A stretch of 64,000 nt of DNA from NCBI GenBank assembly GCA_000002435.2, contig CM018790.1. One strand, written 5' to 3'. Both the position numbers and the translations under genes were made by a program. This DNA is from Giardia intestinalis. Taxonomy: Eukaryota. Below, piece after piece: positions 1-56,946 of this stretch; the stretch's first letter is position 1; each line of letters starts with the position of its first letter. The notes below the pieces were generated by a model that searched no databases, was not told the DNA's origin, and was given only the letters and a program-made list of their open reading frames with translations.

Positions 1-402
1 GTACTCCTGCCAGGATCCCAAGCAAACCTCAAGACAGTGGACCCCAACGACCTCTCTAAGGGGGTGTTTTTTGATGTGAAACTGGGTACAACCAGCACCA
101 CGATCTCCTGCCTGTCTGGCGGACAGAGGAGTCTCCTTGCGCTAAGCCTGATATTCTCCCTGCTCTTGTACAAGCCCTGCCCACTGTACATTCTAGATGA
201 AATAGACGCTGCACTGGACCTCAACCATACGCATAACATAGGCGTCCTTATTAAGAGGAGCTTCCCACAGAGCCAGTTTGTCATTGTGTCTCTTAAGGAC
301 GGACTCTTCTCTAATGCTAACGTGCTTTTGAAGACAAAGTTTGTTGGAGGGTCGAGCGCTATCGACAGATATGTGCGAAATAATGAGAGCACTAGCACCT
401 AA
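1..402 (+). CDS. SMC2: SMC2-type condensin subunit, C-terminal fragment (5' end lies outside the window); the reading frame is open from base 1
   Basis: ABC signature and D-loop: LSGGQRSLLALSLIFSLLLYKPCPLYILDEIDAALD...QFVIVSLKDGLFSNANVLLKTKF. This matches the SMC2/SMC4 C-terminal head (LSGGQRSL[VL]ALSLI...ILDEVDAALD...FIVVSLKEGMF). The ORF-track 'M' at 37 is a GTG and lies inside the gene. Stop TAA at 400-402. Confidence 0.7.
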   Translation, partial: VLLPGSQANLKTVDPNDLSKGVFFDVKLGTTSTTISCLSGGQRSLLALSLIFSLLLYKPCPLYILDEIDAALDLNHTHNIGVLIKRSFPQSQFVIVSLKDGLFSNANVLLKTKFVGGSSAIDRYVRNNESTST

Positions 403-1124: not shown

Positions 1125-1146
1125 TTTGGTAGAATTATTTACACGA

Positions 1147-9965: not shown

Positions 9966-10125
9966 TTAACTTCTTTTTGCTAGACGATTCCTCCCGGATT
10001 TAAACTACGCAATCCATCGGGGTCGATTGCAGCATAATTTGATAGCAGATGCCTGTGCACAGTGGGTACAACATGTTCTCCCTTGTTCTTTGCGGGTAAG
10101 TGTCGCCTTAAAAATTAGAAGATAA

Positions 10126-11796: not shown

Positions 11797-11903
11797 TTGG
11801 CTTGTAGCTCTGGAATAACAGCGTGCATCGACAGGGCAAAGCATTGGGCTCATTCCCAGTAGAAAGTAGAACTCTAAGAAAGTAAATTTCTTTTAGACAG
11901 ACG

Positions 11904-13343
11904 ATGGCTCTGTGGACTACACAGTTCGCTTTAAGCGCTGGTGACGAACATATGCGCGCATTGGAAGACAGGAATAAACACCTGCGGCAGAAACTGGCCG
12001 CTTTGCGACTCGAGTTGACATCGGCCAAGTCCATCAAAGACAAGCGGGAAAAGGATCTGAAGGCCGCCTACAAAAAACAAAAAGAGGCTTATGAGCAGAT
12101 GAAGCAAAAAGGGTGGTCAGCAGAGGCTGAGCTGAACGGCCAGCTTGCTGTCCTGGAGGCCAAGAAGGAGTCTCTCATTATGACAAAAGAGATTATGGAA
12201 CAAGAGTACCATGACCTTGACGACATCTGGAAAACTAACAAGGACTCGTTAGATGCACAACTGGCGTTTCTGCAAAGCAATCTCAAGGGCATGGCTACCG
12301 AGAAAGCCAACATGCGCTCGGTACTTCGGGACGCCAAGCACAAACTTAGGCATTACTTAAAGGAGTGCGAGGGTCTGCTAGATGCCCAGAAGGACCTTGA
12401 ACATTCCATTATCGAGGCACTTAGTCTTGCCCGCGCCTTTGTTGTTAGAAAGTTGGCTACCATTGTCCAGGACGATGTCGTGCTTGCTGAGCTGAAGGAT
12501 CACTACGAGAAGGAAGTCGCAGTGCTTTCCAGTCGTCCTGGACAAACTGCTACGGGTAAGTGCAGGACTTCTGATCTTGTCAGAAGCGAGCAAAAGACAA
12601 GCCCTGCTGATTTAGTTACTAGTACAGACAGATCCAAGAAAGCCAAGGAGGACTCGCGGCCCAAATCGGCAGTATCGTTTACTACCGTTAGTAATACAAG
12701 CCCAAGGAGTAAGGTATTGATAGAGGATCTGGCATGTGAACCGGCTGTGCCACCTGCGCCACTCACTCTCACTCCGGCTAATGCTAGAGCAGAAGCAGAA
12801 GACCAGACACCGGGAGATACAGATCCGCTAAGCACAACACTGCTAATTAGGAATGCTTTAGAGAAAGATAGTAGTGATTACTACCGTCGTCTTCTCAACG
12901 AGGATGCGATTAGAGAATTTTGTTTGACCAGTAAAGAGGAGCAATCTTCTACTAGTGCAGGATCATACATGAAAAAGCTTCTTCGTCCCTCAGTGCAGGA
13001 CTGCACAGAGTCGTATCCTGCAGACAAGCCAACGACATCCGGTCCCAGAGCTGCTTCGTCGTCCAAGAAGGCCAAGAGAAGCTCCTCCTTGAAACGCCGT
13101 GCCCAGCAGATCAAGAAGCACAACAAGCAATATCTAGACCAGATGGCTCTGATAGATATCCTTACGGAGCAAAGGAAGACCCTTCAAGACAAGCTCATCA
13201 ACATCACAAACATCCGGGGAGGAACATACACCAAGGCGTCGACGATAATGATGATCCGCAAGCAAATCGGAGAGCTCACAACAGAGATAGAAGGGCTAAT
13301 CCAGACCCTTCCAAACATCTCCCCCGTCCCCAAGACGACCTGA
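11904..13343 (+). CDS. hypothetical coiled-coil protein (479 aa)
   Basis: Heptad-rich, charged N-terminal half (LRQKLAALRLELTSAKSIKDKREKDLKAAYKKQKEAYEQMKQ), a Ser/Pro-rich middle, and a basic C-terminal region. ATG start. Confidence 0.5.
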   Translation: MALWTTQFALSAGDEHMRALEDRNKHLRQKLAALRLELTSAKSIKDKREKDLKAAYKKQKEAYEQMKQKGWSAEAELNGQLAVLEAKKESLIMTKEIMEQEYHDLDDIWKTNKDSLDAQLAFLQSNLKGMATEKANMRSVLRDAKHKLRHYLKECEGLLDAQKDLEHSIIEALSLARAFVVRKLATIVQDDVVLAELKDHYEKEVAVLSSRPGQTATGKCRTSDLVRSEQKTSPADLVTSTDRSKKAKEDSRPKSAVSFTTVSNTSPRSKVLIEDLACEPAVPPAPLTLTPANARAEAEDQTPGDTDPLSTTLLIRNALEKDSSDYYRRLLNEDAIREFCLTSKEEQSSTSAGSYMKKLLRPSVQDCTESYPADKPTTSGPRAASSSKKAKRSSSLKRRAQQIKKHNKQYLDQMALIDILTEQRKTLQDKLINITNIRGGTYTKASTIMMIRKQIGELTTEIEGLIQTLPNISPVPKTT

Positions 13344-17297: not shown

Positions 17298-17310
17298 TCT
17301 AGGCAAAAAA

Positions 17311-17856: not shown

Positions 17857-17857
17857 G

Positions 17858-18541: not shown

Positions 18542-18571
18542 ACAATTGGACGGGGACTAAGGTTGTAGGCG

Positions 18572-40007: not shown

Positions 40008-41240
40008 ATGACCCTTGTGTTTATCATTCTTGTTCATGCAGCCCTCCTGACAGGCACCCATGGAAATAGGGAGATAGACCTGGAGGGGCAGAGCCCAGAG
40101 CATGCATGCACGCTTCCGATCACCCATCGGTCCCGGGCAGGAGCGTTTACATGCTCAGCGTCAACTTGTGAAACCTGTCTCCAGAGCAATGAAGGATGCT
40201 TTTGGTGCGCAACAACCAACAGTTGTCAAGCACTCAGTGAGGGCGCCGTTCCTGATTCATGTCCTCATGCGGAGTGGCACGATATGATCTATGACGCTCG
40301 CAGCTGCTGTGCCCCTTATGGCAGTAGCTATGCCACCTGTCTGGGAGATGTCCGTGTGTCCTATTGTGCGTGGTGTCCCATCACTACCCAAGGGGGATCT
40401 GCCTGTATTTACAAGTTCACAAAGGAGCTCTCCTCTCGATTTTGCAAGGCGCAGCCAGACGAGCTGATCGAGTGCTCTGCGCTTTCTTCCTGTCGCGACT
40501 GCTCTGCAAGCTCCATGTGTGGTTGGTGCGACCTATCTTCTACCTGTGTCACTATCAACACGCTCTACTCCATGGTCAACGACTCATACGTATGCACCGA
40601 GGTCACTACAAACTGTTGTGGCGACTATACCACGTGCGAAGAGTGCTCAAGTCAGTCTGGCCCATTTACCAAGCAGGCCTGTTTGTGGTGTCCAGACGAT
40701 GGTAAATGCAAGAACTACGATGCAGCGATCTCCTCCTGTTCAAGCACCAACAGGATGGGGACAGGGTTCTGCACGGACAGTTGCTACGTTTCTAGTTCGT
40801 CCTGCCACGCGTGCATGCGGGCAGGAGGATGCATCTGGATAGATTCGTACAGCTACACGAGCGCAGGCAGTCCCGTTGCCCCTGGAGACCTTAAGCCTTT
40901 CTGCATAAAAGGAGGCATCAGCGGCCCAGCCAACCGCGCCTTCTTTTATAACAGTTCGAGCCCAGGCAACTATGCGTTTTCGCCCCACTCATTCTACTAC
41001 TTTAGCTGCACGTTGACGGCATCTGGGCTAATCAACACAATGATCGGGGTTGCCGTTTTCGTTGTCTTGGCCATTATTGCGGTCTTGGTGGCGATTACAT
41101 GCATCAAGCGTTGCAAATATATGGTCCTCCTTCGCGAGGCTCTTGCACAGAACAACGAGGTCCTCGTGGACAGCGATGAAGAGAGTGATGACGCACCTGC
41201 TGTGCTTATGGGCGATGTGCAGGCAGTCCCGTGGGAGTAG
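40008..41240 (+). CDS. cysteine-rich type I membrane protein with four PSI (plexin-semaphorin-integrin)-like modules and an acidic cytoplasmic tail; not a VSP
   Basis: Signal peptide MTLVFIILVHAALLTGTHG. Modules: CETCLQSNEGCFWCATTNSCQ, CRDCSASSMCGWCDLSSTCV, CEECSSQSGPFTKQACLWCPDDGKCK, CHACMRAGGCIWID. Transmembrane helix MIGVAVFVVLAIIAVLVAITCI. Tail with DSDEESDD. It lacks CRGKA and GGCY. Confidence 0.55.
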   Translation: MTLVFIILVHAALLTGTHGNREIDLEGQSPEHACTLPITHRSRAGAFTCSASTCETCLQSNEGCFWCATTNSCQALSEGAVPDSCPHAEWHDMIYDARSCCAPYGSSYATCLGDVRVSYCAWCPITTQGGSACIYKFTKELSSRFCKAQPDELIECSALSSCRDCSASSMCGWCDLSSTCVTINTLYSMVNDSYVCTEVTTNCCGDYTTCEECSSQSGPFTKQACLWCPDDGKCKNYDAAISSCSSTNRMGTGFCTDSCYVSSSSCHACMRAGGCIWIDSYSYTSAGSPVAPGDLKPFCIKGGISGPANRAFFYNSSSPGNYAFSPHSFYYFSCTLTASGLINTMIGVAVFVVLAIIAVLVAITCIKRCKYMVLLREALAQNNEVLVDSDEESDDAPAVLMGDVQAVPWE

Positions 41241-41333: not shown

Positions 41334-42629
41334 CTAGTTTCCGACTAGGGATCGGTCTATGTTCGTTATGAGACTCCTGATCTGCTCCTTAGACATGTTT
41401 CCTGAGGCTCTGCTGACAGCTATCGGACTAGCAATAGAGTGAATGGGTGGCCTGTTGGATGCGCCCAGCCCGCTGTTATACTGCGAATAGTTGAGCGCGC
41501 TATTGCTAACAGAGCGGTTATTAGCGTTAGATGTAAGGGCGTAAATATGGTCCACATTGTTGGAAACCAGGTCCTCCTCGAGTGCTCTACGCTCCAGGAT
41601 CTGCAGGCGGCTGCGTGCGCGCTCAGCCCGATCGTTTATTTCGCGCATAAGGTCGCTCTTCGCTGCCCTAGACTCCCTCTCTGCATCTTCACATCGTCGC
41701 TTAGAGTCGTAGTTTTCACGTGCGAGAGCGTCCTGGAGTCTCTTGGACGACTCCAGCTCAGAGTCTTTCACGTGTAATAGGGCATCGCGTGCCCTGACCT
41801 CCTGTTCAAGTCTGTAGGCATCAGTGGCCCTCTGTGCGGCAAGCTGGTCGGCGGCGGCAAGCTTGTCTGCGAGCTCCGCCCGCTTCTGGCGCTCAAATGC
41901 AGCTTCGTTGCGGGCGAAGTCGACGTCCTTGCGGAGCGCAAGGTTCTCCTTTTCAAGTTGCCCAAGGCGCAGTCTCAGATCAGCAATCTCACGCTCCGCA
42001 TCGACAAGCCGCGCGCGAAGGGCGTCGTTACCGCGCAACTGAGACTCCATATCTGTGCACTTTCGCTCGAGAGCGGCGTTGCGCTTGCTTAAGTCTGCAA
42101 AGCGATAATCTGCGTCCCGGAGACGGGCCTCTGCGTCATCGCACCTCTGCCGATATGCACCGATGCTCGATGTCAAATCCTGCTTTTCCTTGCGCAGTGA
42201 CTCTGCTAGGCGGCGCTCCTGTTCTATCGCAAAACTCTTATCCGCAAGTTCCTTTTCTAGCAGGGTCTTCCTTGCAGATGTGCGCGCAAGTGCTCCTTCG
42301 AGGGCATCAACACGCGCAGTCCCCTTCAGCGCCTCCATCTTCGCCATCTCGACTTCGTTCTCCTTTTGGCGCATCAGGTCCTCTACCTCGTGGAGACGCT
42401 CCCTTTGCTGCTGGAGCGCGAGGATAGACTCACGGTCGACGAGGTCCTGGCGAAGCTCCAGGTGTTCTAGATCGTTTATGGGCCCCAAGGTTTGCCTGTG
42501 TGACGTCGACGAGTATGCGCTGGCTGAGCGGTAGCCGTTGTCGTGCAGAGACGACAGGCGCATGGACGCGGCAAGAGCCGGGGACTGCTGGGCACGGCTG
42601 TTATATAGATCTCCTGTGCGCAAAGACAT
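41334..42629 (-). CDS. coiled-coil protein, paralogue of 48050..50239 (about 431 aa from the first ATG)
   Basis: The ORF-track start at 42671 is a TTG. The first ATG is at 42627-42629, after an A-rich stretch. It shares an N-terminal block (LEHLELRQDLVDRESILALQQQRERL...ARVDALEGALARTSARK) and a C-terminal block (RAERARSRLQILERRA...SPIAVSRASG...KEQIRSL) with the 729-aa gene. Confidence 0.55.
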   Translation of the reverse strand: MSLRTGDLYNSRAQQSPALAASMRLSSLHDNGYRSASAYSSTSHRQTLGPINDLEHLELRQDLVDRESILALQQQRERLHEVEDLMRQKENEVEMAKMEALKGTARVDALEGALARTSARKTLLEKELADKSFAIEQERRLAESLRKEKQDLTSSIGAYRQRCDDAEARLRDADYRFADLSKRNAALERKCTDMESQLRGNDALRARLVDAEREIADLRLRLGQLEKENLALRKDVDFARNEAAFERQKRAELADKLAAADQLAAQRATDAYRLEQEVRARDALLHVKDSELESSKRLQDALARENYDSKRRCEDAERESRAAKSDLMREINDRAERARSRLQILERRALEEDLVSNNVDHIYALTSNANNRSVSNSALNYSQYNSGLGASNRPPIHSIASPIAVSRASGNMSKEQIRSLITNIDRSLVGN

Positions 42630-42731
42630 GGCCTTTATCAGTTTTGCCTTTTTTTCACCGAGGTTTTGCAACCATTGGCGGAAAATCTGTACTTTTTAGA
42701 TATTACATGTGCAATGGCCATTGTTGGCCAA

Positions 42732-43145
42732 ATGTACCCCGAACTGAATGCACTGTCCAACGCATATGCGGTCGACATGGCCATTCAGCACGAGTCTGCG
42801 AGGATCGTTGTAGTACGCTTCGGGCTCCCTGACACCGCTGCCTGCGCTGAGATGGACGAGCTTCTTGCCGAAACGATGGTGCGTCTGTCACGGATGGCCA
42901 TCTTTTACACCGTTGACCGAAATGTTGTGTCAGGATTTGATGAGCTGTATGAGCTAGAGGATGATGATTTTGCGCTCCTCTTCTATTATAGAGGAAGACG
43001 GATGCAGTGTGATTTCGGACGATTTGGAAAGTACAAGTTGACCGTTGTCCCACCAAGCACAGACACCTTCATTGACGTGATCAGCGAATTGTACTATAAT
43101 GCGCAGCTGGGACGGTTTAGCTGTACGTCTCCCTGGCAGCCATGA
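42732..43145 (+). CDS. DIM1: Dim1 / TXNL4-type thioredoxin-like U5 snRNP protein (137 aa)
   Basis: IVVVRFGLPDTAACAEMDELL (compare VVVIRFGHDWDPTCMKMDEVL), AIFYTVDRNVVSGFDELYELEDDDFALLFYYRGRRMQCDFGRFGKYKL (compare AVIYLVDITEVPDFNKMYELYDPCTVMFFFRNKHIMIDLGTGNNNKI), TFIDVISELYYNAQLGR (compare EMVDIIETVYRGARKGR). The ORF-track start at 42666 is a TTG. The ATG at 42732 (MYPELN...) gives a Dim1-length protein. Confidence 0.65.
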   Translation: MYPELNALSNAYAVDMAIQHESARIVVVRFGLPDTAACAEMDELLAETMVRLSRMAIFYTVDRNVVSGFDELYELEDDDFALLFYYRGRRMQCDFGRFGKYKLTVVPPSTDTFIDVISELYYNAQLGRFSCTSPWQP

Positions 43146-43169
43146 TCCAAAATTCTCAAAATCAGACTC

Positions 43170-46100
43170 ATGGCGGACAACGAGTACACCCTTATTTCGC
43201 AGGTCTCTGCCACAGAAAACTGCAAAACTATGCTGGTTCAACATAATGGCACCGGGAATTATGCCTTTAAGTACTTTTATACCTCCTGGCCTGTTCCGAA
43301 TGCGCGCCTCAGGAGTTGCATGGACGCTTACCTGCAACTTACATGTCCACATATTATTCGCCTCCAGACATACTCCATAGATACAGCCTTCACCCTTGTC
43401 ACAGACATGACCAATGGGCCGAGCTTGCGTTCTCTCATTATTAAGCGTCGGATTGCCCAGCAATGGTTTACTTCAGTAGAGATTTGGCTGCTTATTACTC
43501 AACTGTTAGAAGGGGTTAAAGCCTACCAGAGCTTTTATGCTCGTGTAGGCGCAGCCGCTGATACGCCGCCCAATCTTTTTCTTTCCCCGTTCTTCATTCT
43601 TATAAGTGATGAAGAGCGGATGAAGCTTCAGATTACAGAGTTCTATCAGACCCTCTTACTTCCCAGTGTCCAACGGCTTTATGCCACGTCGGGTGTTGCG
43701 CCCCCAGAGGTTTCAAAGCACCTGCCCATCAGTGCTTCTGCAGACATATGGATGATCGGTGCAATTCTTTATGAACTACTGACTTTACAACAATTGGATC
43801 TAGATCGATTGATTGAGCTGAACAGTGATGTGGTCACACTGGCCAAAATTGATAATCTGTATCCAATAGATTATGAGCCCTTGGAGCCATACCAATCTGT
43901 AGCAGTATATAGTTTTCTTGATCATGGAAAAGCTTTTCGTTACAGAGAGCTCTATTCACTGCTCTCATGCATGCTCATCATAAACCCCGATAAAAGGCCG
44001 CCTGTAGAGCTCCTTTTAGATTACGCTCTATTGCACACTCCGGCTCTTGTGCAACCAGGATCACCAGGGTCTTCCCTTTCAAGGCCAGAAGATGGACATG
44101 TGCCAAGAGAAAAAGGAGGCAACGATGCAGCTATCCAGAGTTCTATAATAGTCGGGTCTGATGCTCCAGATGCCACTCTACAAAATACTCTTCTTGTTGG
44201 CGTGAAAACGGAGTTGCACAAGGCCGTCGAAGAAAACAATCTTGACAAATTGTTTATGAACCTCCAGTTTGCACGATCTACCGACATAGACGGAAACACC
44301 GCTCTTGTATATGCCATAAAGGCTAACAATGAAGATGCAGTGAAGATCTTGGCACAGGAGGAAATCGGCGTTCTCACAGGAGAGGGATATTCTCCTCTTC
44401 ACTTAGCTCTGCTTCTCAATCACATACAGCTAGCGAAGTATCTAGACGCCTCCTACGATCTGCAGTTTCTTCATGGGGTGGAGCTATGGGTTGATGAGCA
44501 TGGGGTTAGTAACCTAATGCGCTGCGTTTGCGAGCGGAATCTCGTTGGGGTATACTATTATTCAGATAAGCAACAGAAGTTGCAAGATTATGACGGCAAG
44601 ACTGCTCTGATTAAGGCTGTGTTGAATTATAATGAAGGACTCCCTGCCGGCCAGGAAGACGTCAATCTGGCAATTATAAGGCTCTTGCGATTGCACGAGG
44701 CAAGAATACAGGATAAGCGAGGGCGCACAGCACTAATGTACGCTGCAGAGTGTGGGTATCTAGCGGCCATTGACGTCCTCTCCGGCTCTGAGGCGGGAAT
44801 GCGCGACAACGAGGGTCACAACTCCCTTGAAATGGCGTTCTCCAACAGAAAACTCGAGGCTGCACGGCGGATGCTTCTATTGGAGCCGGTTCCCCATTCG
44901 TGCCCCGACCGCCAGGGACTCACAGACCTAATGAAGGCATGCATTGAGGAAGATGCTTTTTCGCTTTTCTGCCATATGACGCAGACCAGAGCCACAGATA
45001 TTAATGGTAATACAGCCCTCATGCACTGCGTTATTCACGACCGTCCAGAATTTATACCGGAACTCTCTGAAGAGTATAGAATGATTAACAGAATCACAGG
45101 GCATAGCGCTATGATGCTAGCAGTCCAGCTGGAGAGGCGTGCATGCTTTGAGGCCCTTATTAAGCATGAGTCCGGGCTTAAGTCCTCTAGCGGAATGACA
45201 GCGTTGATGATGTGTGCATCACAAGGCCTTAGGCCCTATGTCAATCGCCTTTTGAATATCGAGACCAATATCTTCAATGGCACGTGGAACGCAATGACGT
45301 ATGCAATAGCTGCTAACCATCACGAGATTATCGGCCTTTTGGCACCGTTAGAGCTCAACCTCTCAGCAGTGCTTAAGGACTACGACGCCCTCACTGACAC
45401 AGCCGCTGAGATTCAGCAGGAACTGGAGGGTGCTGCGTCTAGTGTACGATCCACAATATCTCTTAACTCAGGATATACCCCGCTTATGTTTGCCGCCCAG
45501 CAGGCGAACATAAACGCTGTGTGGGGACTAAGAGACAAGTATCTTGGTCGCAAAGATCAGCACGGTTTCACAGCTCTGATCTATGCCACTCGTGTCAAGT
45601 CCTTAGAATGCTGCAGGCTTCTGGTTGATGAGCGAGACATATTGTGCAATCAAGGCCTTTCTGCTTGGTTCTACGCCTATCAGAACGGATATCATGAGCC
45701 ACTGGACATAATCCGTCCCACGATAAAATATGCTAACACAGAACATCGGCTGACAGATCTTCATATGCTCATCCTACGGAATGAAGTGCCGCTGAGTTCG
45801 GTTCAACCAGGAGGTACTGTGTCTTCATCCTTGACAGCAGACAGCACCGTGCGTTCGAGTTCTGCAAAGTCTTCACTGCACCATAGAGACCCTCACGAGG
45901 GCCTTCAGTCAACTTATACACCTAACCGCTTCAGACGCAGTCAAGTAACCACCTCAGCCATTTTGTGTCCTAAGGAGTTATCAAACACTAGCAATATGAT
46001 ATCCTTAGAGTCCTCTCTTGTGCTTCCAGAAGACCCACCAACTAAGACGCAGCCAGATTATCTACAAGATGTTTCCACTCTTCTTTATCTGACAAAGCTG

Positions 46101-48026
46101 TATACCAAGTCTGGTGAAACAGCCCTTATGCTAGCGGCAAAGAGCTACAGAGGTAAGATGGACAAGAATCTACTCGCTCTCGAGGCAGGAATGCGGGATT
46201 CCTATGGAAGATTGGCATCGTGCATTGCCATAGAGCGTGGAAACACAGAGTTTCTCACTGAGGTTCTTCCGTATGAACGGGATGCTCTGATTGCAGATGG
46301 ATTCACAGACCTAATGCTTTCTATTCTTGAGGATGATTATGTTGCCCTGATGCACCACCTTAAGAATCCAGAACAGCAATGCGGTCAAGTCGTCATGTCA
46401 GCTTACACTGCGCTTAACATTTGCATATACTGTGGCAAGAATACGCTTATACCGCTTTTTCTGCCCTACGAAGCCGACATAGAAATCCACGACAAGCTTA
46501 AGCCGTTGGACCTCGCCTATGCGACCCGCAACGTCGAGGCCATACTTCTCTTAATGCCTTACACATACACGGGAGGGCGACTGGCACTCTCCCAGTGCCT
46601 TTCCAACCTCATTCGAGCAGCCATGAAGGAGCAGCGTCTTTCAGATACAAGAGCATATGACCTTCTAGCAGCATTTCACAGCTCAAACTATCGCCAGCTC
46701 AAGGAGGCTCTTCAGAGTAACGACATTCAAAGCATGAAGGCGTTCAAGGAGCTGGCAGATAGTTTCCAGGCCGTTGCTTTGAATATTGAATACCTTGTTC
46801 TCCCAGACGCTGTCTTTGATGACAATGGAAACTCTCAACTACACATCGCTGCCCTGGCTGCAGATACACGTCTTGCAGCTGCGTTTGTACATCTGCATAG
46901 TTTGCGCAACAAAAAGGGAGAAACAGCGCTCATGCTCGCCGCTCGAAGCGGTTCTGAAGCCGTGGTCGACATCCTTCTAAACTACGAGGCGGAGATGCAG
47001 GACAACAACAAAATGACGGCAACGGAACATAGCATTGTGAGCGGCACATTCCACAAAGTTCTGAACCTGTATACACGGGAGAAGGCCTTTCTCGTTAACG
47101 AGTGTGAGCTTTCTCCTCTCATGCTTGCTGTTTTGGAAGGAGACATTAAAACTGTGAGCGCCGGCCTCAAGTATGCAAAGCTGCGCACATCGTCTGGAAT
47201 GACTGCTTTGCATATGGCTATCTACCTCCGGCAGCAAGCACACGCCAATCTCCTCAAGATGGAGAAAGGAATCCTCACATACGATGGCTTGTCACCGTGG
47301 TTCTTAGCTAAAGAGAAGCGCATGGCACATGATTTCTTAGAACCTGACTCCACGGTAGATGCATTGGGCTGTACAGAGCTCCATCGGGCTGCAATCCAGA
47401 ACAATTCGCAACAAGTAAGGAACTACTTACCTCTTGCGCAACAATATAATGCAAATGGTCGCACCTCTCTTATGGAAGCGGCTCTTGCCGGTTCACTAGA
47501 CGCCGCGAAGATACTCGTCGACCATGAACACGGAATGCGGGCAAGGGCCCGTTTCGTTGTGGGCAATAGCTACTTTGATGAAGCCACTGCATTAATGTTT
47601 GCTGCCGCTGCAGGGCATGAGAGCATTGTACGGCTTCTGATCCCCTACGAGTGTAAGATGCACGAGTCGTGCAACGGAAAGACGGCGCTGATGGCTGCCG
47701 CGGCAGCGGGTCACCTTTCCACCCTTAAACTCCTGATTGATAGCGAGGGAGGGCTTACAGGCCAAAATGGCTGGACCGCGCTGATGTCTGTAGTCTCTAA
47801 GCAGTACGTTGATTGCGTCGCTCCCCTGTTGGAGAAGGAGGCAGGAATGCGGGATTCTCAGGGAAACTGCGCTCTTGTGACAGCAATAAGCAACGGGAAC
47901 ATGGACATCGTACGGGTGTTAGCTCCAATTGAGGCGAAGATAATGGGGAAATCTACTCTCATGCGCATCTGGAAGAGCAACATAGCATACGACGAGATAG
48001 TTCGGTATGTTAACAAGCTACTATGA
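43170..48026 (+). CDS. ankyrin-repeat protein (protein 21.1 family) with an N-terminal NEK-like pseudokinase domain, 1618 aa
   Basis: About 40 ankyrin units of the Giardia type (GNTALVYAI..., GRTALMYAAECGYLAAIDVL..., GKTALMAAAAAGHLSTLKLL...). The N-terminal 230 aa have a kinase fold (YAFKYF..., LITQLLEGV..., APPEV...SADIWMIGAILYELLT) but lack the GxGxxG, HRD and DFG catalytic motifs. ATG 24 bp after the Dim1 stop. Confidence 0.8.
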   Translation: MADNEYTLISQVSATENCKTMLVQHNGTGNYAFKYFYTSWPVPNARLRSCMDAYLQLTCPHIIRLQTYSIDTAFTLVTDMTNGPSLRSLIIKRRIAQQWFTSVEIWLLITQLLEGVKAYQSFYARVGAAADTPPNLFLSPFFILISDEERMKLQITEFYQTLLLPSVQRLYATSGVAPPEVSKHLPISASADIWMIGAILYELLTLQQLDLDRLIELNSDVVTLAKIDNLYPIDYEPLEPYQSVAVYSFLDHGKAFRYRELYSLLSCMLIINPDKRPPVELLLDYALLHTPALVQPGSPGSSLSRPEDGHVPREKGGNDAAIQSSIIVGSDAPDATLQNTLLVGVKTELHKAVEENNLDKLFMNLQFARSTDIDGNTALVYAIKANNEDAVKILAQEEIGVLTGEGYSPLHLALLLNHIQLAKYLDASYDLQFLHGVELWVDEHGVSNLMRCVCERNLVGVYYYSDKQQKLQDYDGKTALIKAVLNYNEGLPAGQEDVNLAIIRLLRLHEARIQDKRGRTALMYAAECGYLAAIDVLSGSEAGMRDNEGHNSLEMAFSNRKLEAARRMLLLEPVPHSCPDRQGLTDLMKACIEEDAFSLFCHMTQTRATDINGNTALMHCVIHDRPEFIPELSEEYRMINRITGHSAMMLAVQLERRACFEALIKHESGLKSSSGMTALMMCASQGLRPYVNRLLNIETNIFNGTWNAMTYAIAANHHEIIGLLAPLELNLSAVLKDYDALTDTAAEIQQELEGAASSVRSTISLNSGYTPLMFAAQQANINAVWGLRDKYLGRKDQHGFTALIYATRVKSLECCRLLVDERDILCNQGLSAWFYAYQNGYHEPLDIIRPTIKYANTEHRLTDLHMLILRNEVPLSSVQPGGTVSSSLTADSTVRSSSAKSSLHHRDPHEGLQSTYTPNRFRRSQVTTSAILCPKELSNTSNMISLESSLVLPEDPPTKTQPDYLQDVSTLLYLTKLYTKSGETALMLAAKSYRGKMDKNLLALEAGMRDSYGRLASCIAIERGNTEFLTEVLPYERDALIADGFTDLMLSILEDDYVALMHHLKNPEQQCGQVVMSAYTALNICIYCGKNTLIPLFLPYEADIEIHDKLKPLDLAYATRNVEAILLLMPYTYTGGRLALSQCLSNLIRAAMKEQRLSDTRAYDLLAAFHSSNYRQLKEALQSNDIQSMKAFKELADSFQAVALNIEYLVLPDAVFDDNGNSQLHIAALAADTRLAAAFVHLHSLRNKKGETALMLAARSGSEAVVDILLNYEAEMQDNNKMTATEHSIVSGTFHKVLNLYTREKAFLVNECELSPLMLAVLEGDIKTVSAGLKYAKLRTSSGMTALHMAIYLRQQAHANLLKMEKGILTYDGLSPWFLAKEKRMAHDFLEPDSTVDALGCTELHRAAIQNNSQQVRNYLPLAQQYNANGRTSLMEAALAGSLDAAKILVDHEHGMRARARFVVGNSYFDEATALMFAAAAGHESIVRLLIPYECKMHESCNGKTALMAAAAAGHLSTLKLLIDSEGGLTGQNGWTALMSVVSKQYVDCVAPLLEKEAGMRDSQGNCALVTAISNGNMDIVRVLAPIEAKIMGKSTLMRIWKSNIAYDEIVRYVNKLL

Positions 48027-48049
48027 GGTGACAACCATTTACATTTGAG

Positions 48050-50239
48050 CTAATACCGATACTCTCCAGAACCCACCGAAGCCATCAGATCTCTCATCTG
48101 GTTCTTTGTAAGTCTCTCACTCGCACGGGAAACTGCCAAGGGACTTGCTGTGATGGACATGGCCGGAACCGATGGCGATCGCGGGTGACTGCGGTGGGAG
48201 GCGGAAGTATCCTGTGGCTGCGCATGAATAGAGAAGCTCACAGAGCGATCAATCAGCCCTCTGTTCTCCATTGCTGTCGCTATATCTCTATCCGCGCGAT
48301 CCATTACATATGTACTGCTAGGTGGAGGCGCACAGGATCGATCAAACCCTCCATATCCATAGCCATTTCCTCTGCTAGAGCTTCCAGACAGCCTATTTGC
48401 CTCGCGTGCTGCATCCTCTATTTGATTGCTAATTGCATCTTCCATAACTGCACGGTTTTCTAGGAGCTGGATTCTTCGTCGGGCTCGCTCTGCCCGCTCA
48501 TTCCGCTCCCGTTCAAGTGCTGCCTCAGTTTCCCTCAAAATACGGAGCTTCTCCTCAGCTTCTTTCCGTGTATTCTGCGACTCTATAGCAAGCTGGTCGA
48601 CTACCCGTCTCGTGCTCTCTATTTCTGCTTCCTTGCAGCGTATATTTCCTTGCAGCCTTTGCATATCACGTTCAAGCTGCATATTTCGACGCTCTCGCTC
48701 GTCCATGGACTCTGTCATGATTACAATGCGAGACTTTAGATTGGCCACCTCGTTTATCCGCTGCTCCAGCTCTCCCTCGCATTGCTTCAGGGAGCTAAGT
48801 AAACTATTGAATTCTCTGCACTTAGTATCATGAACGACCTTTAGATCTGTGAGGTTGTCATAGAGGTCCGACACTCTTCTGTTGAGGCCCTCAATGTCTC
48901 CTTCCATTAAGTTTTTGTCCGCTTGAAGGGATGCCACTTGACCTTGTAGTGCTGTGCACTCGCTGCTCTTGCGCATCATGCCGTCCTTTATTTCTCCGTT
49001 GATTTTCTGCAACTCGCAGCAGGTGTCGGAAAGGGTGCGCAGGTCTGTCCTCAGCTCTTTGATTATTTCAGCCATTGTTTTCTTGCCAGTTGCTGAGAGA
49101 AATGCCCACTTATTACGTATCTGCTTCGACGGAGGCCCGGCCCCGCTTATGGACTTGACGAAATTGCACTCCAGATAAATAGCAGACTTAAGAGCGAGAA
49201 GAGTGATGGCATCCTGGCTTCGCATGCTGTTGTACGTTGTGTTATCGATTAGACTAGCTATCTCGGCTATATCATCGGGGCGCAACTTGTTGACAGAACT
49301 ATTGATATTGTCATTGTCGCTTGAAATTTTGTGTCCATACCCTCTTCTGCTTTTCGTCAGCTCCAGAAGTCTACCAACAAAAACAGCTGCCTTACATATG
49401 CTGCGCAACTTCGAGACAGCCTTTGGCGTGCCCTCAAGGATTCGTCGCATACGAAGAGTCTCGTCCAAGAGTAGCTCAAAATGACCAGTGGTGAAGTCCT
49501 TTTGCCGTCGTAGCTCAGCTACCACTCTGTCCAGCTGGAGCACTTTCTTCGCAAGCTCTTTTGTTGCTGTCAGCGACTGGTTCGCTATTTGCTCATTAAG
49601 CAGAACGGCCCTGCTCAGCATCTCATTCTCCTTACGCACAACAGTGAGCTGTGTATCTAAGCCTGACGCTAGCTGCTCTGCTTTCTCTGTGCGGTCCTGA
49701 AGCACCTTAGTGTTCTCAGTAGCAGCATCAACGCGCCGCTGAAGGTCACTCGACAGCTGCATCTGACCGGAAAGTTGCTGCTGGAGATCAGCAGCTTGCT
49801 TATTCGCGGAAAAAAGCGCGGCTCTGAGAGTTTGTATCTCTTTCTCCTGCTCCTCAGCACGAGTGAGCGAAGCCATGTGCTCTGCACGCAAGATATTTGC
49901 ATGTTCCAGCAATCTCTTAACCTCCATGTCCTTCTCCTGTACTTCCCTTTCCAAAACAACCTTGCGTGCAGAGGTTCGTGAGAGTGCATTTTCTAGTGCA
50001 TCCACCCGTGCAGACTCCTTTAGCTGCTGCATTCGCAGGTTTTCCAAGTCTATCTCCTTCTGCACCGCTGCCGCTTTGACTTCATTCAGGAGCACACGCT
50101 GTTGCTCGAGGGCCAGTATTGATTCCTTATCGATCAGCTCCTGGCGCAGCTCCATGTGTTCTGTGTCAGCTCTCGACGAGCCTTGAACCTGCGTCATATG
50201 GAGCGATGTGTCCATGGGTACCATGCGAGACGTGCGCAT
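48050..50239 (-). CDS. coiled-coil protein, larger paralogue of 41334..42629 (729 aa)
   Basis: The N-terminal TEHMELRQELIDKESILALEQQRVLL...ARVDALENALSRTSARK and the C-terminal RAERARRRIQLLENRAV...SPLAVSRASE...KNQMRDL blocks are shared with the 431-aa gene. A central coiled-coil insertion of about 300 aa is extra. True ATG start. Confidence 0.55.
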   Translation of the reverse strand: MRTSRMVPMDTSLHMTQVQGSSRADTEHMELRQELIDKESILALEQQRVLLNEVKAAAVQKEIDLENLRMQQLKESARVDALENALSRTSARKVVLEREVQEKDMEVKRLLEHANILRAEHMASLTRAEEQEKEIQTLRAALFSANKQAADLQQQLSGQMQLSSDLQRRVDAATENTKVLQDRTEKAEQLASGLDTQLTVVRKENEMLSRAVLLNEQIANQSLTATKELAKKVLQLDRVVAELRRQKDFTTGHFELLLDETLRMRRILEGTPKAVSKLRSICKAAVFVGRLLELTKSRRGYGHKISSDNDNINSSVNKLRPDDIAEIASLIDNTTYNSMRSQDAITLLALKSAIYLECNFVKSISGAGPPSKQIRNKWAFLSATGKKTMAEIIKELRTDLRTLSDTCCELQKINGEIKDGMMRKSSECTALQGQVASLQADKNLMEGDIEGLNRRVSDLYDNLTDLKVVHDTKCREFNSLLSSLKQCEGELEQRINEVANLKSRIVIMTESMDERERRNMQLERDMQRLQGNIRCKEAEIESTRRVVDQLAIESQNTRKEAEEKLRILRETEAALERERNERAERARRRIQLLENRAVMEDAISNQIEDAAREANRLSGSSSRGNGYGYGGFDRSCAPPPSSTYVMDRADRDIATAMENRGLIDRSVSFSIHAQPQDTSASHRSHPRSPSVPAMSITASPLAVSRASERLTKNQMRDLMASVGSGEYRY

Positions 50240-50386
50240 TTAGAAGGAAGGCAAAAGTTAGCAGACTTTATTAAAAGTTGTCTATGTGCTCAATAAAATA
50301 TTAGCTCACGGCTACGGAGGGATTGTTGAAAAACTTCGCAGCCCTTAGCAGTATACCAAAGCTTTATTAAATTGTTCGTTGAGCAG

Positions 50387-51496
50387 ATGCCTCTTCTGTC
50401 TGTCAATAGTTGGTTTGGAACCAAGTCTCCCTTCTTCACTCAGAATATGCGGCACTGCGTGCCTAACCCAGGGGTTATCCTCATAATGTCGCTTTTGTTT
50501 ACCGGATCAATAATTTTCCTAATAATCAGCGCGATAGCTTTTTCGTTCAATTCTGCACAAGCATATGGGATAGCACACTACTCTACACCTTCATCTGGAG
50601 CATCTTCTCAAACAGAGCCAGTGACTGTTACTCTCGAACGATTTAATGTGGAAAAGCCCCTTTACGTATACTACCATCTACAAGACTTCCATCAGAACGT
50701 TCGGTTCTATGTCTCTAGCTTTAGTAGGAAGCAGCTCCAATCAGACAGCTTTAAAGCCGCTGGTCTGAACAAGGACTGCAATAAAGGGGGGACGGTAGTA
50801 GATGAGCCATGCGGCCTTATTTATCAATCCTTATTCAACGATACCTTGGCTAGTACCACAACAAACGAAGTAACCTTTTATATCACCAGCACAGACACCT
50901 CCGCAAATCCGTCTCAACCTATAAAGGTTCAGTTGCCTATTAATACAACGGGGATTGCCTGGAAGGAGGACATCAAGAGCACTAGAATGTATGGAAAGGC
51001 ATTCCAAGCTCTTCCAAATAGTGAAGCTGTTGCAGTATGGATGCGAACAGCACCCCTAAGTACATTTGACAAGCTTTACGGACGGTTCACTGCAGAGCAA
51101 CTCAAGGCCCTCGTCACAGACTCTTACACAGCGGAAACCATATATGATGCTTCGAAGGCTGGCGGTGTAACCGTGGAGTTTTCGGTGACAAATAACTTTC
51201 CATACGGGAAGAAGTCCATTGTGCTGCAGCAAATGACCGTTTTCGGAGGATACTATGAAACAAGGAACTTAGCAATCTTATCTATAATCTTAGGGTGTGT
51301 CATGTTTATCTGCGGACTTACTCTTCTCATCATCTTCCTCGAACGCGGACCGCGGAGTGCCAAGTATAAGACAGTCTTAGAACAGTATCCTATAGTTACC
51401 AATAGCAGCATTCTCCTGTCTGAGCTCGAAAGGATGGGGGACGAGAAGGTCCGCAGAACCATACGCCAGGTAAAGGCCGAAATGGGACTCAAGTGA
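50387..51496 (+). CDS. CDC50/LEM3 (TMEM30) family protein, the P4-ATPase beta-subunit family
   Basis: Family motifs: PLYVYYHLQDFHQNVRFYVSS (the FYQNHRRY block) and DEPCGLIYQSLFNDT (the PCGLIAxSxFNDT block). Two transmembrane helices flank a large glycosylated ectodomain. The ORF-track start at 50372 is a TTG; the first ATG is at 50387. Confidence 0.7.
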   Translation: MPLLSVNSWFGTKSPFFTQNMRHCVPNPGVILIMSLLFTGSIIFLIISAIAFSFNSAQAYGIAHYSTPSSGASSQTEPVTVTLERFNVEKPLYVYYHLQDFHQNVRFYVSSFSRKQLQSDSFKAAGLNKDCNKGGTVVDEPCGLIYQSLFNDTLASTTTNEVTFYITSTDTSANPSQPIKVQLPINTTGIAWKEDIKSTRMYGKAFQALPNSEAVAVWMRTAPLSTFDKLYGRFTAEQLKALVTDSYTAETIYDASKAGGVTVEFSVTNNFPYGKKSIVLQQMTVFGGYYETRNLAILSIILGCVMFICGLTLLIIFLERGPRSAKYKTVLEQYPIVTNSSILLSELERMGDEKVRRTIRQVKAEMGLK

Positions 51497-51525: not shown

Positions 51526-53220
51526 TCACACGCTTTTTCCATCGCAACTGAAGATGTCATCAACGCGCAGGATCATACAAGCATTTTCTATAGCGGCCTT
51601 GAGGACCTGCAGCTTTGTGCTCAGTGGGTCCCAGATGCCCTGCTCCTTGCAGTTGACGAGGAGCCCTGTGACCCCATCGACACCCAGCTGACAGTTCGGG
51701 TCACTGGTGTGGGCAGCCTTGAGCTCGGTGATGGTCCTTATTATATTCCCACCGCAGTTCTGCAGCAGCGTCCGTGGGATCACCTCCAGGGATTTGGCGA
51801 CTGCCTTAATGACAAGCTGAGGCTTTCCGACAAGGGTGTCTGCATACTGAGAGAGTGCCGTCGACAAGTGAGCCTCAAAACAGCCTCCGCCAATGACCAG
51901 GCGCGGGTCAAGGATAATATTCCTGCACACGTGCATGGCGTCCTGAATGTTCCGCTCTATCTCCAGCAGGGTGCTCTTGGAGGCGCCTCGAAGCACAATG
52001 GTACAGGCACTGGCCTTACCCCCAGATTGGTGGATGAAGGAAAAGAACTCGTCACCGATCTTCTGGAGCTCATAGAGGCCTGCGTATGTCCCCACATCAC
52101 TTTCTTGAAGCTCCTCCACGCGACTGACAATGGTGGCACCGGAAACTGCCGCAAGGCGCACGTTGTCTGTCTTCCTGACGCGCCTGAGGACTGTCACGCC
52201 GTGCTGGACAAACATATGAGTCGCCTGATCCGCCACACCCTTCTCGGTGATGACCAGGTCGGGCTTGAAGCTGAGGATCTTCTCCACGTGGGTCCTAATG
52301 TAGTCTTCTTCGACCTTGAGTATGTCTCCTAGATCAGACTTCCCTTGGAACAGCTCTACGTTCATCATTGATTGGGCCTTCTTGTACTCTAGAGGGCAAT
52401 CCAGAAGAAGTATGCGGGGATTCTTGATGTACTTCCTCATATCGGGGTGAATGACATCCTTATTAAGCACTACGCCATCGATGACGCAGCAGTCCTCCAC
52501 AGTCGCACCAGGGATCTTCTCTATGCGGCAAAACCTCTTAATATCAATGTCAACTGAAGCACCAAGCTCTGCTTCATCCCCTTTTGAACGCGCATCCTTA
52601 GTGACACCCACTAGACCCTTGCGCACCTCCGCTCCACGTCCTCTAGCGACTATGCTGACCGCCTCGAGCGCAAGGTTGCACATGAGATCCATCCATCTAC
52701 TGACAAACTTCGTGGATAGCGAGTTCTTTAAAACTGTCATAATAGGGCCTGCCGCCTCAGACTTCAGACCCAGGATCTCTATGCCCTTTATATTTATTTC
52801 AAATGAAGATCTTTCTGCCTCACTCAAAAGAAAGTCCAAGGCTTTCTGGTATCCCTGCGTAATGAGAATAGGATGTATCCCACACTTGAGAAGGGGCTCT
52901 GCCATGGCGATCACCTCCCCTGCCAGGATGACAACGCTTGTGGTGCCGTCTCCGACTTGCTCCTCCTGGGCCCGTGAAACCTCCAGCATGGCCTTGGCTG
53001 CGGGGTGTGCCACGTCGAGCTCGCGCAGGATGGCGTTCCCGTCGTTTGTCATGACCACGCTCCCCATTGAGTCCAGGATCATCTTGAGCATGGAGCGTGG
53101 GCCCATCGTTGTCCTGATGACGTCTGCGACTGTCTTACTTGCCTTGATGTTGTTCATGCGGGCCATTTCTCGGCGCTCGCTCTCGGTGCCTTGGCTCAGG
53201 ACATAGACTTGGGGCTGCAT
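51526..53220 (-). CDS. CCT3: T-complex protein 1 subunit gamma (CCT3), 564 aa
   Basis: Group II chaperonin motifs: TNDGNAILRELDVAHPAAKAMLEVSRAQEEQVGDGTTSVVILAGE. The N-terminus aligns specifically with CCT-gamma (VLSQ.T.RE.G......NI.A.KT.AD.IRT..GP.SM.KM.LD.MG). ATG start. Confidence 0.9.
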   Translation of the reverse strand: MQPQVYVLSQGTESERREMARMNNIKASKTVADVIRTTMGPRSMLKMILDSMGSVVMTNDGNAILRELDVAHPAAKAMLEVSRAQEEQVGDGTTSVVILAGEVIAMAEPLLKCGIHPILITQGYQKALDFLLSEAERSSFEINIKGIEILGLKSEAAGPIMTVLKNSLSTKFVSRWMDLMCNLALEAVSIVARGRGAEVRKGLVGVTKDARSKGDEAELGASVDIDIKRFCRIEKIPGATVEDCCVIDGVVLNKDVIHPDMRKYIKNPRILLLDCPLEYKKAQSMMNVELFQGKSDLGDILKVEEDYIRTHVEKILSFKPDLVITEKGVADQATHMFVQHGVTVLRRVRKTDNVRLAAVSGATIVSRVEELQESDVGTYAGLYELQKIGDEFFSFIHQSGGKASACTIVLRGASKSTLLEIERNIQDAMHVCRNIILDPRLVIGGGCFEAHLSTALSQYADTLVGKPQLVIKAVAKSLEVIPRTLLQNCGGNIIRTITELKAAHTSDPNCQLGVDGVTGLLVNCKEQGIWDPLSTKLQVLKAAIENACMILRVDDIFSCDGKSV

Positions 53221-55065: not shown

Positions 55066-56277
55066 CTACGCCTTGCCCCTGCAGATGAACCACCAGCAGA
55101 GGAAGCCCACGAGGCCCCCGACGACAACGATGACAGCGACGGAGATCCCCGCGATGGCGCCGGTAGAAAGGCCGCTCTTGTTCGTGCTACCGCCATCTTT
55201 CATGAGGTAGCAGAGAACGGGGCCTTGATTATTAGATGGGGGAGCGCAGCTCGCGCAGTTAGCGACGCCCTGAATGTTATTGCTTGTCTCTGTACACAGC
55301 TTGCATGCTTTACTGGCGTCCAAGTAACGGCCAGGTGGACAGGCGCTGCACTTATTGGGCTGATTAGCTTCGGTGCATGTCGCACAAGTGGAGTCGCATA
55401 ATGGACACATGTTCGAGACAGCTGTCAAGCCATTCGCACACGTTTGGCATTTTCCATCCCCAGTGGGCGTTGTGCAGATGCTCTTCCCGGGGAGCCTCGT
55501 CGTCTGGTAGCACCCGCCCTCCTGGATGAAGTATCCGGCGGCGCAGACCGTGCAGGCACCGTTAGCGGCAGTGGTGCAGAACCGAGTCCTGGCCGCATTG
55601 CTTGTGCAGACGCCATTGAGCGGCACGTTGTTCCCCTTGCACTTCGAGCAGTACTTGGTACCTCCAATTGTTAGGCCGCACGTCTCGCACTCCGGGCCCT
55701 CCACGCATTGCTCCACGCACGTGCCGTCTGTAGGATTGCTCTCGTCGGCGTACCTCAGCATCTTCCCGGCGGGACAGGCCGTGCACTTGGAAGCGCCGGC
55801 CCCGCTGCACTCCGCACAGGAGGGGTCGCAGGGCGCGCACGTTTGTCCGGATAGATACGTTCCGACAGGGCAGGCATCTAAGCATGCCTTCTTCGTCGGG
55901 GTCAGATGCTTTCCTGGTTCACATTCTTCGCAAGTCTGCTTGTCCGGGGAGCACGTCTGGCAGTTCACGATCGGGCAGTCGGCCTGCGGCGTGCACTGCG
56001 TCCCGTCGTCGTTGGGGTCGAAGCCAGGGCTACACGTCTCGCACCTTGTGTTGTCGCCAGAGACGCACTGGGCGCAGTTCTGGACTCCGCAGTCGGACGC
56101 GGGGTTCTTGGTGCACTTCTTCGTGGTGGGGTTGAGGGTGTAGCCTGAGCCGCACGTCTTGCACTGCTGGGGGTTGCTTTCCTCGCAGACATCACAGCCC
56201 TCGACCTCGCACGGCGCGGTCTTTTCGTTGTGCTTTGCCAGCACGGTTGCACAAACTAGGAGAAATCCTACCAACAT
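55066..56277 (-). CDS. variant-specific surface protein (VSP), 403 aa from the first ATG
   Basis: Signal peptide MLVGFLLVCATVLA. About 25 CXXC pairs. The GGCY motif (IQEGGCYQ). The invariant VSP C-terminus GLSTGAIAGISVAVIVVVGGLVGFLCWWFICRGKA. The ORF-track start at 56334 is a GTG; the ATG is at 56275-56277. Confidence 0.9.
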   Translation of the reverse strand: MLVGFLLVCATVLAKHNEKTAPCEVEGCDVCEESNPQQCKTCGSGYTLNPTTKKCTKNPASDCGVQNCAQCVSGDNTRCETCSPGFDPNDDGTQCTPQADCPIVNCQTCSPDKQTCEECEPGKHLTPTKKACLDACPVGTYLSGQTCAPCDPSCAECSGAGASKCTACPAGKMLRYADESNPTDGTCVEQCVEGPECETCGLTIGGTKYCSKCKGNNVPLNGVCTSNAARTRFCTTAANGACTVCAAGYFIQEGGCYQTTRLPGKSICTTPTGDGKCQTCANGLTAVSNMCPLCDSTCATCTEANQPNKCSACPPGRYLDASKACKLCTETSNNIQGVANCASCAPPSNNQGPVLCYLMKDGGSTNKSGLSTGAIAGISVAVIVVVGGLVGFLCWWFICRGKA

Positions 56278-56946
56278 TAGCCGGAGTTCGTATGCCACTG
56301 CTCTTCTGTCAGGCCGGTGCGTTGCCGCGAGCACTGAGAGACAGCCGCTCTTGCTCTCTTGATCGGTTGGACTGGAGAGGGATAAGATAATAGCACACCC
56401 ACCGGAGGCCGGCTGATGGCACGGTTCCCCCTGGCTTCGATAGGAACAGGACCAGTGAGGAGTAGACTCAGACCGTGCCTCTCTTGTGGAATGATTGATT
56501 GGGGTGCACTCTTGTACATTGCTGTCACTGTATCACTGGGCCCACCTGCAGGTGCGCTCAGAGGCCTCACGGGTAAGCTGCGCCCACTTCTCGACCGTCC
56601 GGAGACGATGGCTGGTTGTGGATAACATACTAAAAGCTCCTCTCCATCGATGCATCCAGAGCTCAGTGTCGTCCCGGTCGGCATACTCTGTCGGGGCACT
56701 CCGCGTCGGCCTCCAGGGTTCGGCCTGCTCAGGGCCATACGAGCCGCTAATGTGCCCTCCTTGGCCTGCCATCAGCAGCTCGCACTAGGCGCCTTACTCA
56801 GGCAGTAGCCAAGGCCACTCCAAAGGGTGGCTCCGGATTGCAGTTAAAATCAGCGGCGGCTGTTGACTCCACTCCCTATCCCAGCTGCCGCAGAGGGTGT
56901 CCTGGGAGACGCTAGTAACAGTGCAGTTAGCGGCTTTGCAGGGCCG

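Follow-up and report, generated by a model that had tools for sequence, protein, structure and literature searches.

It is at the dense bands and disc margin, not at the basal bodies, that the minus ends of Giardia ventral-disc microtubules are reported to originate, and the composition of these two zones of disc microtubule origin was called undefined in the same work, in which a green fluorescent protein (GFP) fusion of DAP15499 was placed at both (bioRxiv 10.1101/361105). DAP15499 is already a member of the Giardia disc-associated proteins (DAPs; Dawson laboratory GFP catalogue), an operational class defined by localisation and not a sequence family. Its gene, GL50803_15499 (here called A; 41334..42629, minus strand, 431 aa, an exact match to XP_001708676), lies in the window analysed here, a stretch of 64,000 nucleotides of Giardia intestinalis WB, assemblage A (contig CM018790.1 of assembly GCA_000002435.2), together with a longer coiled-coil gene, GL50803_17412 (B; 48050..50239, minus strand, 729 aa, an exact match to XP_001708672), which is not listed as a DAP in the main texts of the literature searched. 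Both genes are annotated and A is a published DAP; within the searched literature, what appears to be new is the paralogy of A and B, the definition and range of their family, a putatively ancestral hinge that A would have lost, the fact that the two genes have stayed linked over a long period, and the place of B as a candidate at Giardia microtubule-organising sites.

Three other described systems invite comparison. SF-assemblin and beta-giardin are, likewise, protist coiled coils of basal bodies and flagellar roots, found in Giardia also in the ventral disc; however, neither A, B nor their homologues gave a Pfam match to this family (scans to E = 10), and both the lengths and the motifs differ. 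With the pericentrin, CDK5RAP2 and Cep135 class the likeness is functional only, these being long coiled coils found where microtubule minus ends are organised, and A marking the basal bodies, dense bands and disc margin, of which the latter two are nucleation zones of disc microtubules; no sequence relationship to this class was found among 1.84 billion proteins or in the PDB, and no gamma-tubulin-binding motif was identified. Intermediate filament proteins and lamins share with A and B a long helical rod, greatest conservation at the rod ends, and a disordered head and tail, but there was no PF00038 match and lamin coil fragments appeared only as weak, generic PDB matches (E 0.003–0.06). At the end of the first coil of B (residues ~250–262; ~49454..49492, minus strand) there is a conserved (Y/F)LExLLDExxR motif (HFELLLDETLR in B, YLERLLDENIR in the metagenome protein P0085 and YLERCLEQNLA in Spironucleus), the (Y/F)LExLLDE part of which presumably resembles the intermediate filament termination motif YRKLLEGEE, a lead and nothing further. 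When A, B and six homologues were scanned against Pfam, no family reached its cut-off and the matches were generic coiled coils below threshold (the best being ATG16, 21.8 bits against a cut-off of 33.7), and a profile search of the PDB returned designed coiled coils and fragments of lamin and tropomyosin only, all at E ≥ 0.002.

On the alignment evidence, A and B are true paralogues. Composition-adjusted BLASTP of one against the other returned two collinear alignments, A53–266 with B25–242 (90.5 bits, E 1e-23, 35% identity) and A270–424 with B525–722 (45.1 bits, E 4e-9). When A was shuffled 200 times by each of three schemes (over its whole length, inside windows of 14 residues, and between residues of equal heptad position) and compared with B, the best scores had means of 17.6–19.1 bits and never exceeded 30.0 bits, and reversed A scored 20.8 bits. 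Because all of these controls score lower than the real pair, similarity through generic heptad composition, the explanation that a sequence-only reading of this locus had set against its own proposal of a paralogous pair, is ruled out.

The N-terminal and C-terminal blocks on which that reading was built are indeed shared, and they resolve into three modules. The rod-start block at residues 53–130 of A (42240..42473, minus strand; DLEHLELRQDLVDRESILALQQQR...ARVDALEGALARTSARK) is 59% identical over 78 aa to residues 25–102 of B (49934..50167, minus strand), both stretches carrying the consensus [DE]xE[HQ][LM]ELRx[DE]LID[RK]ES[ILV]L ... AR[VLI]DALExAL[AS]RTSARK, which is also present, more diverged, in Spironucleus and in the metagenome proteins P0091 and P0094. 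The rod-end block spans residues 291–352 of A (41574..41759, minus strand; ELESSKR...RAERARSRLQILERRALEE), where it aligns across the family and is matched in a Kipferlia fragment, and residues 539–600 of B (48440..48625, minus strand; EIESTRR...RAERARRRIQLLENRA); the two copies are 46% identical over 68 aa (B 539–606) and follow the consensus E[LI]ES[ST][KR]R..D.LA.E ... ERAE[RK]A[RK].R...LE.R, after which comes a low-complexity linker. The C-terminal motif, at residues 399–429 of A (41343..41435, minus strand; ASPIAVSRAS..MSKEQIRSLITNIDRSL, with predicted short helices) and residues 697–722 of B (48074..48151, minus strand; ASPLAVSRASERLTKNQMRDLMASV, delimited by BLASTP, block identity and an AlphaFold2 model), is 50% identical over 26 aa; its consensus ASP[LI]AV[ST]RAS..[ML][ST]K.[QE][IM][RK].L[IM] is found in both G. 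intestinalis proteins and is degenerate in the B orthologue of G. muris. Annotations disagree on the start codon of B: in the older one, as in most assemblies, the protein begins at Met1 (50239) and has 729 aa, the 2019 re-annotation of WB gives 721 aa, which would begin at Met9 (50215), and two divergent B variants begin MPMD..., the equivalent of Met6.

A HMMER search with a seven-sequence profile against 1.84 billion representative proteins matched 23 proteins at E ≤ 0.001 and nine at E < 1e-10, with some credible relatives scoring above 1e-10; one of the nine, P0089 (E 7.7e-11), is on its sequence, with ten matched stretches, taken as a generic repetitive coiled coil. The relatives comprise the A and B orthologues of G. 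muris (GMRT_15515, 412 aa, and GMRT_11479, 654 aa), giving two family members per Giardia species, a protein of Spironucleus salmonicida (SS50377_23153, 519 aa), a partial protein of Kipferlia bialata (KIPB_013051), and the metagenome proteins P0004 (583 aa), P0085 (862 aa), P0091 (817 aa) and P0094 (a 90-aa fragment). Over its whole length the Spironucleus protein (gene at 10001..11560 of the compared contig) can be aligned with B (residues 2–516 against 25–575, E 8e-23), and it stops at ...EKQMEQW, directly ahead of the ERAERAR motif of the rod end; the tail motif was not found in the three frames downstream of its gene (genetic code 6), and the gap after this gene is unusually long, at 868 bp. 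In the Kipferlia fragment, the ERAE[RK]A[RK]...LE.R half of the rod-end block and the C-terminal motif are collinear with those of the family (hhalign probability 95.5%, E 1.5e-8). Nothing was added to the HMMER result by word-indexed searches that used A, B or an 11-sequence profile as query, and two scans of metagenome contigs gave no matches.

As far as these searches reach, the family is thus restricted by sequence to Fornicata (Giardia, Spironucleus and Kipferlia) and a few metagenome sequences, in agreement with the lineage-restricted coiled-coil family with conserved terminal modules that had been proposed from the window. Since Spironucleus and Kipferlia, which have no disc, carry members, the distribution places the origin of the family before that of the ventral disc. 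Two further metagenome records touch the pair. P0003 (290 aa, on a 950-bp Logan contig) has an unrelated N terminus, with a PF15795 match on record, followed by a stretch that is 100% identical to the C-terminal 172 residues of A, and is most likely an assembly chimera; P0087 (189 aa, Logan assembly) follows B for 143 residues and then an overlapping open reading frame (ORF) in another frame (49669..49989, minus strand), and is a frameshifted read-through, probably arising from a sequencing or assembly error in the sample.

Because synonymous sites between A and B are saturated, a ratio of non-synonymous to synonymous rates (dN/dS) for the pair itself is not meaningful, and the dN/dS comparison suggested with the original proposal was made instead between WB and the orthologues of assemblage B (GS), for which dS is above 1 and the ratios are rough. 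A (GS locus 10929..12224 of the compared contig) is 95.4% identical in amino acids between the assemblages, with dN/dS 0.019 and dN 0.025, which makes it more conserved than the CCT chaperonin subunit encoded nearby (93.3%, dN/dS 0.031), and its dN is 0 over residues 53–140 and 399–431, that is, in the N block and the tail. B is 85.3% identical (dN/dS 0.051, dN 0.082); within it the N block (dN 0.025), the second coil and the rod end have dN/dS of 0.01–0.02 (0.011 over residues 521–610), and the central hinge is the least constrained region (0.14). These rates indicate that A and B are both functional genes under strong purifying selection.

AlphaFold2 models were computed with the family alignment as monomers (predicted template modelling score, pTM, 0.24 for both, a value to be expected of extended monomers), and only their secondary structure was used. 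In the model of A, a disordered head (residues 1–53) is followed by a single helix over residues 54–352 (299 residues, per-residue confidence, pLDDT, mostly 88–95), a disordered linker and helices at 402–410 and 414–429. The model of B has helices at 23–267 and 389–610 separated by a hinge with short helices (268–388; mean pLDDT per 10-residue block 35–57), then disorder (611–711) and a last helix at 712–720. In the end blocks, conservation at the exposed heptad positions b, c and f is 0.54–0.64 (N block) and 0.51–0.67 (rod end) against 0.34–0.38 in mid-rod, and the N block of A is conserved at all heptad positions. Since exposed positions are conserved, the pattern points to end-block surfaces that bind something, beyond the core of a dimer.

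The sequence-only reading had suggested a possible cytoskeletal or disc association for the pair; for A this agrees with published GFP localisation (DAP15499), and for B the literature search gave nothing. Besides the dense bands and disc margin, A-GFP has been reported at all eight basal bodies, the lateral crest and the cytoplasmic posteriolateral axonemes (PMC4931700; PMC5450421 and supplements). The transcript of A reached 804 FPKM (fragments per kilobase per million) in in-vivo foci against 237 in culture, a 3.4-fold difference (PMC5450421 supplements), and the protein has been detected by mass spectrometry in published data, including an encystation proteome. A is, taken together, an abundant and highly constrained protein at microtubule-organising structures. 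For B, the searched literature contains no main-text mention, apparent matches to its gene number being coincidences, and yielded no localisation, interaction or proteomic evidence; B is absent from the encystation proteome that detects A and is not in the searched supplements of the 2011 disc proteome paper.

Whether B shares the cytoskeletal role of A is, on its sequence, an evenly balanced question, and it may retain a related role through the shared end modules. A divergence in function, with A cytoskeletal and B acting elsewhere or being a poorly expressed, degenerating copy, is possible but the less probable outcome. Its non-synonymous rate, about three times that of A, would fit such a course, as would its derived head and C-terminal end (LMASVGSG in place of LIxxIDRSL), the missing proteomic detection and the missing literature coverage. 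However, the dN/dS of B (0.05) matches those of its neighbours CDC50 (0.050; 84.1% amino acid identity) and NEK (0.040; 86.7%), the N block, second coil and rod end are held far more tightly than that, and an unbroken ORF is present in assemblage B and two further assemblage-level variants, as well as in G. muris and the metagenome contig described below. Because its dN/dS is like that of its neighbours and its ORF is intact across lineages, B is not degenerating. The derived state of its ends is itself read from the family, since A-like features such as the head sequence SPALAASMRL and the C-terminal LIxxIDRSL are also present in P0085, P0004, P0091 and Kipferlia and are therefore ancestral.

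A and B lie in the same orientation with a gap of 5,421 bp, which holds, on the opposite strand, DIM1 (GL50803_15500; 42732..43145, plus strand, 137 aa, Pfam DIM1 E 1.6e-27), divergently paired with A, and a NEK-family ankyrin-repeat gene (43170..48026, plus strand, 1618 aa), so that the layout is as first described. On the far side of B are a CDC50/LEM3 gene (50372..51496, plus strand, Pfam CDC50 E 3e-33), divergently paired with B, and the CCT subunit gene (51526..53220, minus strand). Two other lineages are available for comparison. In G. muris both genes are on one chromosome; the third lineage is represented by a metagenome contig, L003 (Joint Genome Institute sample 3300010163, Ga0136175_10014415; 15 kb, 60% GC), from a Giardia-like eukaryote, which encodes a short A-type gene (A′; 3..1262, 419 aa, cut by the contig end) and a long B-type gene (B′, encoding P0085; 7371..9959). 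The CDC50 protein of L003 shows ~40% identity with its G. intestinalis counterpart and the same with that of G. muris, and therefore L003 represents a third lineage, separated from either Giardia species by about the distance that separates the two. The contig also carries a SET-domain gene and an Arf/Roc GTPase gene, with compact intergenic spacing.

With A and B read as plus, the order in G. intestinalis assemblages A and B is CCT(+) CDC50(−) B(+) NEK(−) DIM1(−) A(+), with A and B 5.4 kb apart; in G. muris it is CCT(+) CDC50(−) B(+) at ~978 kb and DIM1(−) A(+) at ~1,084 kb, on the same strand and ~105 kb apart; and in L003 it is A′(+), a gene of 1068 aa (+), CDC50(−), SET(−) and B′(+), with ~6 kb between A′ and B′. 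Two syntenic blocks are conserved, CCT–CDC50–B and DIM1–A(–NEK). Both divergent pairings, DIM1 with A and CDC50 with B, are kept in G. muris, where the NEK orthologue (15519–20006 of the compared contig, 41–49% identity) lies ~4 kb beyond the A orthologue, so that the neighbourhood of A and NEK is conserved despite the rearranged gene order; CDC50 is nearby in L003 as well. The bracketing of DIM1 and the ankyrin gene by the pair is, by the same comparison, specific to G. intestinalis and not a general layout.

An ancient local duplication in the same orientation, followed by rearrangements, is rather likely on this gene-order evidence. The Giardia genome is ~12 Mb, and on that assumption two given genes would fall within 5–6 kb of each other by chance at ~1e-3 per lineage, which would be needed twice, since A and B share a strand in each of the three lineages and lie ~6 kb apart or less in two; this low chance is what favours a local event. 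The alternative of a dispersed duplication, with the proximity in G. intestinalis being a secondary juxtaposition by rearrangement, draws on the ~105 kb between the genes in G. muris and on a gene order around them that differs in all three lineages, A being on the other side of CDC50 in L003. We consider it unlikely given the improbability of that linkage arising twice and the fact that G. muris keeps both the B-then-A order and the orientation. Local duplication with later rearrangement, as first put forward, is accordingly plausible in its main outline, with the starting adjacency its conjectural part.

The sequence-only reading implied that a local duplication took place fairly recently in G. 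intestinalis and that an internal coiled coil of ~300 aa was then added to the larger copy, a course that the 5.4-kb spacing, the shared orientation and the length difference of 298 aa would suit; it did not survive, and is now very improbable. In a neighbour-joining tree of 254 ungapped columns, a distance tree with unequal rates, the A sequences of G. intestinalis, G. muris and L003 form one clade (100% bootstrap) and the B sequences of the same three lineages another (90.5%), L003 being the first branch in both and Spironucleus and P0091 falling outside. Third-codon identity between A and B is 0.26–0.40 in the N and rod-end blocks and 0.19 in the short tail motif, the composition alone predicting 0.25, and the longest stretch of identical nucleotides measures 8 bases. 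Because both copies are present in three lineages and their synonymous sites are saturated, it is near certain from these sequences that the duplication is ancient, preceding the split of G. intestinalis, G. muris and the third Giardia-like lineage. Recent gene conversion between A and B is ruled out by the shortness of that run and a third-codon identity near random.

Nor does the central segment look like an expansion. Residues 243–524 of B (48668..49513, minus strand), the gap between the two BLASTP alignments, have no counterpart in A, and within them lies the hinge (residues 268–388; 49076..49438, minus strand), in which a conserved amphipathic helix, KLRSICKAAVFVGRLLELTK, is followed by low-confidence short helices and a loop, so that roughly half of the extra segment is modelled as non-coiled. 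The motif of this helix, KLRxIxxAxxFVxRL, is aligned in the G. muris B orthologue, P0085, P0004 and the Spironucleus protein; the central region is likewise spanned by sequence in P0091 and in P0004, P0004 keeping at least the motif, and all three A orthologues are short and lack both segment and motif. Because the segment is present in the B orthologues and in Spironucleus, whose protein aligns with B throughout, parsimony favours loss over gain, and it is very likely that ~280–300 central residues were deleted in the A lineage after the duplication.

In some assemblies both proteins carry the name 'Chromosome segregation protein SMC', papers label 15499 as DUF390 (PMC4931700) or START (PMC5450421), and another paper labels it 'Sm (archaeal type)'. 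B does recall an SMC protein in having two long coiled-coil segments, similar in length at 245 and 222 residues, split by a hinge-like region, but neither protein has ATPase heads or an SMC hinge domain and A has no hinge of any kind. That A and B are SMC-type chromosome-segregation proteins, or START, DUF390 or Sm proteins, deserves hardly any credence beyond the existence of these labels, since Pfam scans to E = 10 found no SMC head (SMC_N), SMC_hinge, START, DUF390 (PF04094) or LSM domain and the AlphaFold2 models consist of helices and disorder without a globular ATPase head. From their sequences, the labels look like coiled-coil or low-complexity artefacts.

The history we propose begins with a single gene whose product would have had a short disordered head, the rod-start block, a first coil, a non-coiled hinge with the conserved amphipathic helix, a second coil, the rod-end block and, beyond a low-complexity linker, a conserved short helix at the C terminus. 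Its duplication, most likely a local one that left both copies in one orientation, would have preceded the split of the three lineages. The copy next to CDC50 (B) would have kept the full architecture and evolved faster, the copy next to DIM1 (A) would have lost the hinge and adjoining rod to become a single helix of ~300 residues that evolves very slowly, and later rearrangements would have altered the genes between them. Both proteins may form coiled-coil dimers, their conserved end modules docking to one another or to structures of the basal body or root. The rod could then serve as a spacer, of fixed length in A (~44 nm, assuming a rise of 0.148 nm per residue) and jointed in B, with two arms of ~35 nm and a hinge, and an ancestral basal-body function would have been extended in Giardia to the disc nucleation zones.

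Several points weigh against this picture of ancient paralogues, a structural family, loss in A and a cytoskeletal role. The localisation of A comes from C-terminal GFP fusions made in one laboratory, with the tag beside the conserved C-terminal helix, and the silence of the literature and of the encystation proteome on B has been noted above. We infer dimerisation, end-module docking and the spacer role with monomer models of low pTM in hand, and likewise infer the original adjacency of the genes across the wide gap in G. muris and the different order in L003. The Spironucleus protein is without the C-terminal tail module, which is thus not universal in the family. The tree is a distance tree of few columns with unequal rates, in which P0004 groups with A weakly (72% bootstrap) and the deeper nodes are weak (22.5%). 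With these points taken into account, the overall picture is still likely.

Elsewhere in the window, the 1618-aa NEK/ankyrin protein between A and B has Pfam Pkinase and Ank repeats, and in its kinase domain, aligned to STK17B, the HRD aspartate is replaced by alanine, the next lysine by threonine and DFG by EFY. Because the catalytic HRD aspartate and the DFG motif are lost, it is a pseudokinase as judged from its residues, which bears out its earlier description as an ankyrin/pseudokinase gene. A gene for a PSI/high-cysteine membrane protein (40008..41240, plus strand) flanks the side of A. The GC-rich parts of the window (57–61% GC; 2338..6099, plus strand, and 55066..56334, minus strand) contain genes for pyruvate:ferredoxin oxidoreductase (1253 aa) and for a variant-specific surface protein (Pfam VSP E 1.5e-119). 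No RNA family was matched when the entire window was scanned against Rfam.

The value of these results lies mainly in the field of the Giardia cytoskeleton; elsewhere this is an ordinary lineage-specific coiled-coil duplication, with the added interest of an old paralogue pair kept linked in a genome otherwise heavily rearranged in gene order. The misleading SMC, START, DUF390 and Sm annotations are corrected. For the problem of how Giardia nucleates and anchors its ~100 disc microtubules, DAP15499 is of interest as one of the few proteins reported both at the two nucleation zones and at the basal bodies. The analysis adds an experimental handle on this problem in the form of one paralogue (GL50803_17412), a family older than the disc, and two rod-end blocks and a terminal helix that are conserved. 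A bolder reading, which we regard as speculative and rather improbable, is that the family is a Fornicata-specific scaffold of microtubule-organising sites, with A and B assembling through their shared end modules at the basal bodies and, in Giardia, also at the dense bands and disc margin. If that were true, B would be a missing component or partner of the disc nucleation machinery, and the rigid rods of A and the jointed rods of B would set different spacings.

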